DNA of 64,000 nt from Eledone cirrhosa. Taxonomy: Eukaryota. Shown here one piece after another: positions 9,257-14,394 of the stretch. Position 1 is the first letter of the stretch; every line of letters starts with the position of its first letter. The notes under the pieces are model-generated. The model worked only from the letters and a program-made list of their open reading frames with translations. It made no database searches and was not told the origin of the DNA. The stretch is from contig OZ024747.1 in the NCBI GenBank assembly GCA_964016885.1, forward strand, positions 14,756,001-14,820,000. Reading direction: 5' to 3'. The position numbers and the translations under genes are program-made.

Positions 9257-10624
9257 TGTATATATATATATATATATATATATATATATATATATATATA
9301 TATATATATATATATATATATATATATATATATATATATATATATATATATATATATATATATATATATATATATATATGCACATATGCATTGATACATG
9401 CATACATATGTACGTTCATATATACGTTACGTACATAAATGCATACATAATACTTTTAGGTGTCTATATGTATTTAGGTACGTATATATGAATATATCAA
9501 GGTACGTATATGTACACCTACATGTCTGTATATATTCGCCATTTTAATACTGCTAAAAATGATTGTTTACAAATGACAACATTTTAATTTAAAATCATTT
9601 GAGATTTCTCTTAAAGAAGTTAGAGAGGATCTTTCATGCAATACTATAGAGATTCGGAATAAAAGACATTAAATAAATAGAAAGATACATAAAAGACAAC
9701 AACACGATATTTCAACTTTATAACAGTTTATTTGAATTTCATTATTGCTATGACTCTATATATCACTCCTGTCTCTTATAATTAATCTACTTCTGTTATA
9801 TCAAAATATCAATGTCTCTTTTAAGAAGAACGCAGTTTTCATAACGATAACTATCTATTTGATATATGACTAACAAAGCGGTTTTACTTTATTCTCCTGT
9901 ATATCATATATGATAGTTGCTTTTGCAAGAGACTCTTTCTAAATGTTTGCATGAAGCAGATAGTAATGGATGATAATGCAATCATTCTTAAATTGCTTCG
10001 TTTGAATTACAGTATGTATTCAATTCATTTGCATTGATATAATCTTACAGTTGAAAAACAACATGGCTTCAATAAGAGGAATGAAAAGATTTTTCCAAAC
10101 AGGCGTTAATAAATGGAGTGATTTCTATAAAGGTGTTTACAATTATAGATAGAAACTGTTAACATCAGACAATTTTTACACGTTAATTATTATTAACTCC
10201 ACATTTATGAATATTGATCAATATAAATATTATATTTTTGCAGAAGAAAAAGTGTAGCATTTTGTATCAAAAATATAATGGCAGACACACACACATACGT
10301 AACTATCTAACTATCTGTCTAATATCTATACCTATCTCTCTATTGATCGGTCTATATCCCCTCTCCCCCTCTTTCTCCTCTCACATTATTCTCTCTCTCT
10401 CTCTCTCTCTCTCTCTCTCTCTCTCTCTCTCTCTCTCTCTCTATATATATATATATATATATATATATATATATATATATATATATATATATATATATAT
10501 ATATACTTAGGGTAAATATTGATGCAATTCAAATCAAGCACTCAACGTACTTATTCCACATAGGAGTGACGGAGTAATTATCGAATAAAGAAAAGCGAAG
10601 TAGTTTCAGATGTTCAAGTCTTTT

Positions 10625-10800
10625 AATAATAATTGTTTCTACTTTAGGCACAAGGCCAGCAATTACCCAGTGCATTACTGGTACTTTATTTTATCGACCC
10701 CGTAAGGATGAAAGGCAAAGTCAATCTCGGCGGGATTTGAACTCAGATCGTAAAGGGACTTAACTATGCTGGAAAGCATGGCGTCCGACCCCCTACCGAT
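10625..10800 (-). mobile_element. Meta-like tRNA SINE nested in repeat A
   Basis: Reverse complement of the family consensus, 5' few bases missing. Confidence 0.9.
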
Positions 10801-12096
10801 AATAATAATGATGTGATATATATTTCAATGGCGAAAGTTGCCACACTGTTCTGTGCGCCAGTTTCGCGACATCGTCAGACAGCTTGTTACATAATAAGGT
10901 TATGTTTCCGAGGCAATCCAAATTGAATCAACATGGGAACGGACGAAGTATGTGCTTTTGGGTTCTTCATCCGTTCCCCTGTGAGTACCAATTCACCCCC
11001 ACTGGTCTGCGCAAGCGCAGGTCCAGGGGGAAGTTGACCATTAGCTACCGCAGATTTCAACGAAATTCGCTCAGTCAGTTCCCCCTCTCAGCCAAACAAT
11101 GGCCCATTCAAGCCTGCACCGCAGTTTACTGCTACCCATCCCCTCTGTGGCAGTCAGACGAAGCCAGTGGGGATGGAAGAGTGTTAGTATTTACAGGTCT
11201 CTTTACTACCTCTCACAATCATGGACAGTATAACTGATCATCAACCCCTAAGAGAATATATTTAATTCTATGTATCATGGTTTCATATTGGAAGTTATAA
11301 GTGAAATTGGAACTAAAAATTACAATTTGAAATCGAAAATCCTAAATCAAGTATCAGAAATTAGAAATTAAAAAATTAACATTTAGAAATTAAACAATTA
11401 AAAACATTTTCAAGTGAGAATCCGGATTGAGGTGAGTAAAAAATATATATAGATTGAAGTGAGTAAATAATATGCTGAGAGATGTTTAAGTAAGAAGTTC
11501 TGAAAGGGGTCCTAATATTACAGTTACACTATCTACATACTGAACAATGGTACCGTACAGTAGAACTGAGGGTAAATTACAGTATGAAAGGTAGTAGTTA
11601 ACTGGGTACATAGTCGTAATTTCCATCACATGGAACAAAACCAATAAAAACATATATAAAGTACACAAAAGAAAAGAACCAATGAATGAATGAATGAATG
11701 CAAGAACACATAGAGTACATATATGCAAAATGATCCATATTATTGTCAATTTGTCCATGTATAGACTGAATTGAGGAGGCTTCAGTTGAAATGCGATTTG
11801 GTGCAGAAAAATAGGGGTTTATCTTTGTTTTTGTTTCCGCGTATTTATCCTGCCGAAAGTTATTATGTCCGTCCAGTATCATGGGTTTCCATCGCTGGTA
11901 GAGGGAATTTCCGGGTGTAGCTCGTGGTTGGCTCCTCTCCTCTCCACTTCCCCCTGGACCTGCGCTTGCGCAGACCAGTGGGGGTGAATTGGTACTCACG
12001 GGGGAACGGATGAAGAACCCAAAAGCATATACTTCGTCCGTTCCCATGTCGATTCAATTTGGATTGGCTCGGAAATATAACCTTATTATGTAACAA

Positions 12097-12170
12097 GCTG
12101 TCTGACGATGTCGCGAAACTGGCTCACAGAACAGTGTGGCCACTTTCACCATTGAAATATATATCACAGC
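12097..12170 (+). ncRNA. Type I hammerhead ribozyme candidate with long stem II (second copy on minus strand at about 10811-10883)
   Basis: GCTGT-CTGACGA-[long imperfect hairpin]-GAAA-TATATA-TC^-ACAGC; stem I GCUGU/ACAGC is perfect and stem III is a palindromic minimal loop. Confidence 0.7.
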
Positions 12171-12179
12171 ATTATTATT

Positions 12180-12365
12180 GGCATGGCAGTATCGGTAGAG
12201 GGTCGGACGCCATGCTTTCCAGCATAGTTACGTCCCTTTACGATCTGAGTTCAAATCCCGCCGAGGTTGACTTTGCCTTTCATCCTTACGGGGTCGATAA
12301 AATAAAGTACCAGTAATCCACTGGATAATTGCTGGCCTTGTGCCTAAAGTAGAAACAATTATTAT
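12180..12365 (+). mobile_element. Meta-like tRNA SINE nested in repeat A'
   Basis: A box tggcagtatcgg, B box gagttcaaatcc, central gcctttcatccttacggggtcgataaaataaagtaccag, (ATT) tail. Confidence 0.9.
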
Positions 12366-14394
12366 TAAAAGACTTGAACATCTGAAACTACTTCGCTTTT
12401 CCTTATTCGATATTTACTCCGTCACTCCTATGTGGAAAAAGTACGTTGAGTGCTTGAATTGAATTGCATCAATGTTTACCCTAAGAATTTAGCTCCAATT
12501 AGTTGAGCGCTCTATGATGTAACCGATATGGTGGAGAGGAGAGGAACCAACCACGAGCTACACCCGGAAATTCCCTCTACCATGGGATGGAAATCCATGA
12601 TACTGGACGGACATAATAAATTTCGGCAGGATAAATACGCGGAAATAAAAACAAAGATAAACCCCTATTTTTCTGCACCAAATCGCATTTCAACTGAAAC
12701 CTCCTCAATTCAATCTATACATGGACAAATTGATAATAATATGGATCATTTGGCATATATGTACTCTATGTGTTCTTGCATTCATTCATTCATTCATTCA
12801 TTTATTCATTCATTGGTTCTTTTCTTTTGTGTACTTTATATATGTTTTTATTGGTTCTGTTCCATGTGATGGAAATTATGACTATGTACCCGATTAACTA
12901 CTACCTTTCATACTGTAATTTACCCTCAGTTCTACTGTACGGTACCATCGTTCAGTATGTAGATAGTGTAACTGTAATATTAGGACCCGTTTCAGAACTT
13001 CTTACTTAAACATCTCTCAGCATATTATTTACTCACTTCAATCTGTATATTTTTTTACTCACCTCAATCCGGATTCTCACTTGAAAATGTTTTTAATTGT
13101 TTAATTTCTAATTGTTAATTTTTTAATTTCTAATTTCTGATACTTGATTTAGGATTTTCGATTTCAAATCGTAATTTTTGTTCTAATTTCACTTATAACT
13201 TCCAATATGAAACCATGATACATAGAATTAAATATATTCTCTTAGGGGTTGATGGTCAGTTATACTGTCCATGCTTAGTGAGAGGTAGTAAAGAAACCTG
13301 TAAATACTAACACCTTTCCATCCCCACTGGCCTTCGTCTGACTGCCACAGATGGGATGGGTAGCAGTAAACTACGGTGTAGGCTTGAATGGGCCATTGTT
13401 TGGCTGAGAGGGGGAACTGACTAAGCACATTTCGTTGAAATCTGCGGTAGCTAATTGTCAACTTCCCCACTAGGTAATTGCTGGCATTGTGCCTAACGTA
13501 GAAACAATTATTATTAAAAGACTTGAACATCTGAAACTACTTCGCTTCACCTCTTCACACTATAAGTCGAAATTACAAAATCACTACCAACATCCTCGGA
13601 AACTATAATTCAAACTCTACTCTTATGTATCAATTCGTGGTTGAATTAATGTGTCATTGATTCTATGCACAAAACAACACCTACTCTGTGCGCACGCACA
13701 CATACACCACACACACACATTCGTATGTATGTGTTTGTGTGTGCGAACACACACACACACACACACACACATATATATATATATATATATATATATATAT
13801 ATATATATATATTATATATATGCTTTTGTTACAGTATATATACTGTTGCCAAGGGAACGTATGTAATGAAGAAAATCAGCTTGTAATCTTTCTTAGAAAG
13901 CACATCTACGTCAAATAACTGCTTCTTCTTCCTTTATTAAGATACTGTTAGTTATCGGTTCTTTCGCACAATCAGGAATCATTCTCCTAAATGTGTATTT
14001 AATTAAACAATACTCATTAATTAAAACTGAAAGAACGAACCATTAATCGATCACTAAAGAAGTGCATTCTAATACTATTTTGTGGTTCATGCCAAGGCAA
14101 TATATTTGTTATTATTGTTTTCACTCATGTTTTTGTGATTGCTGTTGATTCTGTTAGTTTTGCTGCTATTGTTGCTCTTGCTACTGTTGCTATTGCTACT
14201 GTTGCATCTTGCTACTGTTGCATCTTGATGTTGTATAGCTGTAAGTCGTACCCGATGGAGCAACCGTTATAATCTAAATCATTGAAACTGTTACTATCAT
14301 TTTATTTATTCTGAAACAAAATACACCATTGTATATTAATCAGCGTAGTCGTTTTTTAGTTGCATACTATCCATACATGTAGAGCTTCTCTATC

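Follow-up and report, generated by a model that had tools for sequence, protein, structure and literature searches.

We analysed a repeat block of about 3 kb, at positions 10506 to 13547 of a 64,000-nt stretch of the Eledone cirrhosa genome (assembly GCA_964016885.1, contig OZ024747.1, positions 14,756,001 to 14,820,000 of the forward strand), which is called the window here and supplies all position numbers. A preliminary description had seen in this block two segments, A and B, repeated in inverted and in tandem orientation, and had read them as a possible retrozyme-like monomer with one hammerhead ribozyme per unit and a captured short interspersed element (SINE). We compared the block with itself, with other copies in the genome (3.0 Gb searched) and with Penelope-like elements (PLEs) of the same genome.

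Anatomy of the block

A repeat finder recovered the inverted arms as repeats I1 to I10, at 94-98% identity. On the + strand the order is A' (11943-12485), a stretch of 45 nt (12486-12530), B' (12531-13468) and a piece of a further A (13468-13547). The left arm (10506-11947) carries the same segments in inverted orientation; compared in element order with B' followed by A', it was identical at 1390 of 1440 aligned bases (96.5%). Substitutions between the two arms comprise 32 transitions, of which 8 lie in CpG, and 18 transversions; two indels also separate them, one of 16 nt in an ATTC repeat and one of 11 nt at the 5' end of the SINE. The partial third A (80 nt) matched 12318-12398 in the repeat finder output, and a 178-nt SINE is common to all three A copies. 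No open reading frame (ORF) in the block exceeds 151 aa from stop to stop, and the four longest gave sub-threshold Pfam matches only. The inverted and partial-tandem anatomy was thus reproduced nearly to the base by repeat finder, sequence and alignment, and the description was equally right about the (TA)n tract next to the left arm (10443-10505), about the SINE shared by the three A copies and about the lack of an ORF, no Pfam family scoring above its cut-off. The features of the block and its flanks are as follows.

10384..10505, no strand: (CT)n and then (TA)n microsatellite, the (TA)n part at 10443-10505; target tract at the 3' end of the left arm (sequence; family 3' ends)
10506..11947, - strand: left arm, near-unit-length B and then A with SINE, its 3' end ccctaag at 10506 being the "long" site (96.5% to B' plus A'; sister of the right arm)
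10634..10801, - strand: SINE copy within the left arm, its 5' end short by 11 nt (alignment)
11943..11947, no strand: head-to-head junction of the arms, a few bases of microhomology (inverted repeat I10 stops at 11947, I3 begins at 11943)
11943..12179, + strand: A5, which opens A and is a high-copy segment of the family (genome search)
12102..12119, + strand: CUGACGA-UGUCGC-GAAAC, the proposed hammerhead boxes; not a hammerhead (Rfam, descriptors, folds)
12180..12357, + strand: nested SINE in element sense, with a 9-bp duplication ATTATTATT at 12171-12179 and 12358-12366 (SINE-less copies join 12179 to 12358)
12358..12485, + strand: A3, the 3' part of the unit, with both alternative family 3' termini, ~12408 and 12485 (survey of terminal copies)
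12479-12485, + strand: end of A, ccctaag (sequence)
12486..12530, + strand: 45-nt "tail", from the long 3' site to where the left arm has its 5' end, present only at internal A-to-B junctions (39 other loci; 25 internal junctions)
12531..13468, + strand: B', unit body, non-coding, with an (ATTC)n stretch (repeat finder, ORF and Pfam searches, tree)
13468..13547, + strand: partial third A, made of the last 40 nt of the SINE and the first 41 nt of A3 (its right end and its junction to B' occur at this locus only)
13548..13700, no strand: single-copy right flank (one genome match, the window itself)

The block belongs to a high-copy family

Family loci were sampled with queries lying within A or across the tail junction, so that the frequencies of tandems and of 5' ends are biased; copy numbers are lower bounds. 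A search with A5 gave 1930 first-look candidates genome-wide, and the 42 matches that were scored were 91-100% identical (94-96% for the full-length ones). The junction from A3 through the 45 nt into B gave 1222 candidates and was complete in 39 other loci at 96-99% identity. The preliminary description had asked whether A and B are single-copy elsewhere, and they are not. The genome-wide search for A'-tail-B' units that it had proposed thus found the junction in those 39 loci, together with A copies both with and without the SINE. The canonical unit measures about 1348 bp (tandem spacing 1347-1364), that is 1.35 kb without the SINE and 1.53 kb with it. The view of the block as a non-coding mobile unit is supported, in the form of a high-copy family without ORFs. 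Our literature search found no published description of this family, and the accessible part of a repeat survey of Octopus vulgaris (PMC13282606) describes none like it.

Since the whole junction is present in 39 other loci, the 45 nt belong to the unit constitutively. What had been described as a tail is a part of the unit that is missing from the inverted arm. The stretch does exist at 12486-12530, but its reported likeness to other tails (12396-12470) was not significant, as 201 of 2000 shuffled sequences scored as well. On the same count we dropped the idea that it is a diverged duplicate of 12396-12470, forming a repeated module for recognition by the reverse transcriptase.

A nested SINE was amplified with the unit

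In SINE-less copies elsewhere, 12179 joins straight to 12358 with a single ATTATTATT. The 178 nt at 12180-12357 are thus an insertion flanked by a 9-bp duplication. The junction between A5 and the SINE gave 942 candidates; of the 41 matches that were scored, 40 spanned it, and 39 of these lay at other loci. This indicates that a SINE-bearing lineage was itself amplified. Moreover, A5, SINE and A3 were found in one piece, with varied 5' truncation, in 11 loci examined. The SINE is a nested insertion into an earlier source copy and has since been passively copied with the element. The proposals that it is cargo and that it was present before the arms were made both hold, given the recurrent junction and its presence in all three A copies.

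This SINE is short, recurs many times in the window and has a 9-bp target duplication; ARAGORN gave no tRNA, and neither did Rfam in 10300-13750. It contains the B-box-like GAGTTCAAATCCC, which may belong to an internal Pol III promoter. Within the 64-kb window, 23 matches of at least 80 nt to the SINE (174-178 nt) were obtained at 73-100% identity, 2 of them within the element.

SINE-bearing and SINE-less A segments were seen mixed within single tandem arms at five loci (L051, L078, L064, L069 and L074). This mixture suggests template switching between RNAs, transcription of tandems that were already mixed, or precise loss of the SINE between its 9-bp repeats.

Two 3' termini, a (TA)n target and head-to-head arms

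We then surveyed 79 matches to A3 from the window and 37 distinct other loci. In 25 the match was internal and followed by the 45 nt, in one it was cut by the edge of the locus, and the remaining 53 were terminal. The terminal copies ended at ~12408 (29 copies) or ~12485 (23 copies), with a single copy ending elsewhere; the family therefore has two 3' termini, 77 nt apart. A TA or TC/TA microsatellite adjoined 46 of the 53 terminal copies, a short (TA)4-5 was present at 4 more, and 3 had none, among them the third A copy of the window. On the 5' side as well, (TA)n was found in three of four simple 5'-truncated copies (L002, L005 and L010, not L009). Because (TA)n also flanks the 5' side, it is the target of the element and not its tail.

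At another locus (L007, G000:C2:379479302-379482538, around 1340-1450), one (TA)n was adjoined on one side by a family copy and on the other by the inverted 3' end of a different PLE group, which is also the group of L029. Two element 3' ends at one (TA)n in L007 imply that several elements share one microsatellite target.

The 5' ends of 60 arms were scattered, and a fixed RNA 5' end at 12531 was rejected for that reason. Nine of these 60 ends fall within 12040-12068, a stretch of 29 nt of A5, an excess that is biased by the choice of loci through A queries. The cluster could mark a transcript start in a pseudo-long terminal repeat (pseudo-LTR).

Inverted pairs were present in 18 of the 37 other loci, and all 18 were head-to-head with their 3' ends outward. 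The same polarity was seen in all 6 inverted pairs of the A5 search, from which 8 loci were fetched (2 tandem, 2 inverted and 4 solo). The layout of A, 45 nt, B and part of A was also found in L007, L008 and L061-L078. The longest arm reached 2593 nt (L073), or about 1.9 units, and for two arms cut off by the edge of their locus, extension gave ends at 1.5-1.7 units. In a tree of 30 B copies that included both window arms, the two window copies were each other's closest relatives, well beyond chance (96.5% identity versus 94.3-94.7% for the next best), and sister pairs were also recovered in L073, L074 and L076. As paired arms are sisters, each composite arose in one event and diverged afterwards.

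The right arm of the window lacks 11943-12317 of its last A. Its junction between the end of B' and 12318 and its end at ~12398 were found only in the window. This arm is non-canonical and reflects either an unusual priming site or later trimming.

The block contains no recognisable hammerhead

The preliminary description had placed a hammerhead in A', with cleavage at 12165/12166. With the gathering score as threshold, Rfam detected no hammerhead anywhere in the window, nor was there one in 10300-13750 at E<=10. At E<=1 over the whole window, neither a hammerhead nor another ribozyme family was among the best 150 of 286 matches, and these 150 were mostly microsatellite "miRNA" noise. The CUGANGA motif occurs once per A copy, at 12102 and in mirror position at 10878. 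Six bases (UGUCGC) separate CUGACGA (12102-12108) from GAAA (12115-12118), a spacing at which helix II cannot form. At the proposed cut site (UC/A, 12164-12166), C15.2 faces A16.2, so that helix III cannot start at the core. A helix I of 5 bp (GCUGU/ACAGC) is possible in the middle copy and broken in the left one (ACAUC). Minimum-energy folds bury the core bases in a hairpin and are not unusual (z scores of -1.8 and -0.8).

Rfam searches of 12 PLE loci at gathering score were blank as well, and hammerheads of PLEs are minimal forms (PMC4209133). Rfam alone can therefore not exclude a minimal hammerhead of the PLE kind, and we thus wrote a descriptor of our own for minimal hammerheads. This descriptor did recover recurrent minimal hammerheads in autonomous PLE loci of the same genome and found none within family units across 122,847 bp of sequence from family loci. 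Permuted hammerheads, in which the strands come in another order (type SGC, for example), are known (PMC10085705, in the part available to us). Permuted forms were searched in all six block orders and on both strands, and 10500-13560 contained none. A scan with relaxed stems (I>=3, II>=3, III>=2) around the sole core gave no hammerhead in any of the six orders, a result to be set against the 10% of shuffled controls that gave one. The block has no recognisable hammerhead. The claim of one ribozyme per monomer is not supported, since a hammerhead of no topology could be built, and cleavage at 12165/12166 is left without a basis.

Penelope-like elements in the same genome

A genome search for the GIY-YIG endonuclease domain gave 10,596 candidates, and all 150 that were scored passed the Pfam cut-off. 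One locus (L080, G000:C1:145867300-145877200) has a 938-aa ORF with a reverse transcriptase and, at the C terminus, a GIY-YIG domain. This ORF is flanked by two minimal hammerheads, 4979 bp apart, that have a U3-A8 core variant and a palindromic CCGG; the motif was also found in L081, L084, L088 and L090. Judged by its sequence, L080 is apparently an intact canonical PLE. PLEs of three or more sequence groups (8-9, 4 and 3 of 30 loci) have ends that directly adjoin (TA)n.

The hallmarks of PLE insertions include frequent 5' truncation, a partial tandem (the pseudo-LTR), a neighbouring copy that is inverted and 5'-truncated, optionally a short extension at one end, and a preference for microsatellites, (TA)n in the case of Naiads (PMC8557442, as far as its accessible text goes). 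We found the partial-tandem pseudo-LTR, the adjacent inverted 5'-truncated copy and the (TA)n bias in the family, and the scans for minimal and permuted forms found no hammerhead of the kind present in PLE pseudo-LTRs. The 3' termini, which fall into two discrete classes (short in 29 copies, long in 23), may correspond to the published tail of 30-40 bp, from which they differ by lying 77 nt apart. Overall, the family resembles non-autonomous PLEs such as MRC1 and other non-autonomous Chlamys elements of Chlamydomonas, with which it shares partial tandems, adjacent inverted copies, variable 5' truncation, a (TA)n target, high copy number, the absence of an ORF and possibly an optional 3' extension or two 3' termini (PMC8557442, same part). 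Unlike Penelope/Poseidon, Neptune and Nematis, it has no hammerhead; according to the same partial text, Naiads lack one as well. It also differs in its co-amplified nested SINE, and nothing in its sequence tied it to an autonomous PLE among the 42 PLE loci sampled.

A minimal-hammerhead-like motif lies elsewhere in the window (24731-24787, + strand), with CUGAAGA, helix II (6 bp), GAAA and helix I (5-6 bp), and is near-identical in two PLE loci (L020 and L079). It adjoins a near-perfect palindrome (24621-24710) that matches many miRNA hairpin models on both strands. Motif and palindrome together may be a small inverted PLE stump.

Other features of the window

On the - strand at 39550-39747, hammerhead-like blocks occur in S-G-C order (stems II 4, III 4 and I 5), with CUGAUGA at 39615 and with G and C 100 nt apart; they may be due to chance. 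A reverse transcriptase fragment (RVT_1, E 5e-14) is found at 57785-58840. At 60904-63999 there is a pair of ORFs resembling a long interspersed element (LINE), the first of 634 aa with a weak zinc knuckle and the second starting with an Exo_endo_phos endonuclease and running off the window.

Discussion

What was noticed at this locus does exist and has an ordinary explanation, probably the Penelope-type insertion of a repeat that is non-autonomous and carries a SINE as a hitch-hiker; it is not a retrozyme. We propose, with a probability of about 0.75, that the block arose as one insertion from a high-copy family without ORFs, consists of two head-to-head arms in (TA)n and was mobilised in trans by the reverse transcriptase and GIY-YIG endonuclease of a PLE. 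We hold this figure because the link to PLEs would rest on insertion architecture and a shared target rather than on homology. Published work on an Anolis PLE protein provides a model for such an insertion. In vitro, this protein cuts both strands of the DNA and extends them, and it begins reverse transcription at two sites within the RNA, a finding that accounts for the "tail" (PMC11167929, in its available part).

By this model, a PLE endonuclease would have cut the (TA)n target, and each DNA end would have primed reverse transcription inside the element RNA, as in vitro for Anolis (PMC11167929). For the left arm, synthesis would have begun at the long site with (TA)n as the primer, and almost one unit would have been copied. 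For the right arm, more than one unit (A, 45 nt, B and part of A) would have been copied, either because the transcript was longer than the unit or because of template jumping. Microhomology at 11943-11947 would then have joined the two cDNAs. The SINE would have entered a source copy earlier, with its 9-bp target duplication, and would have been passively copied since, and the arms would have diverged by 3.5% after the insertion.

Some observations weigh against this proposal. The right arm ends at ~12398 against single-copy DNA (13548-13700) and not at (TA)n. The family has no hammerhead, whereas canonical endonuclease-bearing (EN+) PLEs have one in the pseudo-LTR. Finally, no autonomous partner sharing the unit sequence was detected when profiles of A and B (nhmmer) and blastn (word size 7) were run against 30 + 12 GIY-YIG-bearing loci (~217 kb), a sample of 42 loci that is tiny relative to the 10,596 candidates in the genome; the only match was a neighbouring family copy in L030.

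This last result would also be expected if the family were a non-autonomous element mobilised by a microsatellite-specific LINE, with inversions made by twin priming, which we regard as unlikely. Both 5' truncation and 3' ends adjoining a microsatellite fit target-primed reverse transcription too. Dong/R4 elements favour microsatellites, and classical twin priming yields non-overlapping pieces of one RNA. In L1 twin-priming inversions, both ends of the break prime reverse transcription and an inverted 5' part is joined by microhomology, as the family arms would be; here, however, both arms are near-complete and overlap, and one exceeds unit length, so that two near-complete units stand where non-overlapping pieces would be expected. 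Dong-R4 LINEs are among the recently active families of Octopus vulgaris, together with PLEs and SINEs (PMC13282606, part available). However, PLE copies in the Eledone genome themselves end at (TA)n. A local DNA rearrangement of one repeat copy, by fold-back, by a replication template switch or by later segmental duplication, is very unlikely. It would account for the locus-specific junctions of the right arm at 13468 and 13547, and an arm divergence of 3.5% implies an old event that left time for later changes. Against it, 18 of 37 other loci likewise have arms placed head-to-head, with 3' ends always outward at canonical sites, a regularity that makes random rearrangement improbable.

The retrozyme-like reading, in which an active hammerhead in each monomer cuts multimers at 12165/12166 and the unit RNA is circularised and reverse transcribed by a rolling circle, is extremely improbable in our view. 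The boxes at 12102-12119 with their possible 5-bp helix I in the middle copy, the existence of arms longer than one unit and the circular templates proposed for PLE tandems (PMC4209133) speak for it. Yet helix I is broken in the left copy, helix II and a core-adjacent helix III cannot form, and Rfam was blank even at E<=10. The relaxed scan in six orders was blank as well, against 10% of shuffles, and the minimal-hammerhead scan, positive in PLE loci, found nothing within family units (122,847 bp). Moreover, arrays reach about two units at most, and the 5' ends are scattered instead of being fixed at one cut site. Animal retrozymes are repeats of 150-450 bp, arranged as dimers to large multimers (PMC7229834, part available). 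Like these metazoan non-LTR retrozymes, the family is non-coding, non-autonomous and arranged in head-to-tail repeats; according to the accessible parts of PMC7229834 and bioRxiv 10.64898/2026.07.22.740005, retrozymes each have a type I hammerhead and give circular RNAs of 170-400 nt, in contrast to the hammerhead-less 1.35-kb unit in arrays of no more than about two. The retrozyme identity was thus not supported. The preliminary description nevertheless came close to the right neighbourhood, given that animal retrozymes have been argued to be non-autonomous Penelope-like derivatives (bioRxiv 10.64898/2026.07.22.740005, same part) and that this element has a Penelope-type insertion layout. Junction reads from RNA alone would not show a circle, because the A-tail-B junction exists as DNA in 39 other loci.

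A further variant, which we consider quite doubtful, is that of a protein-free Penelope-type parasite without a hammerhead, copied from longer-than-unit or circular RNA with no known ribozyme involved, and expressed with the help of the Pol III promoter of the captured SINE. If it were true, arms that mix SINE-bearing and SINE-less copies would record template switching between RNAs during one insertion.

Reading the block as a probable Penelope-type insertion removes a false ribozyme and retrozyme lead and gives a standard explanation for a puzzling A-B-A' structure. It also calls for caution in annotation, as repeats of this type may wrongly be labelled as LTR elements, satellites or fold-back elements. 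With its hundreds to thousands of short non-coding copies, the family is a natural data set for the poorly understood insertion mechanism of PLEs. Its two 3' termini are sharply defined, the (TA)n target is strict, the inverted arms lie strictly head-to-head, and the built-in SINE marker tells templates apart within a single insertion.

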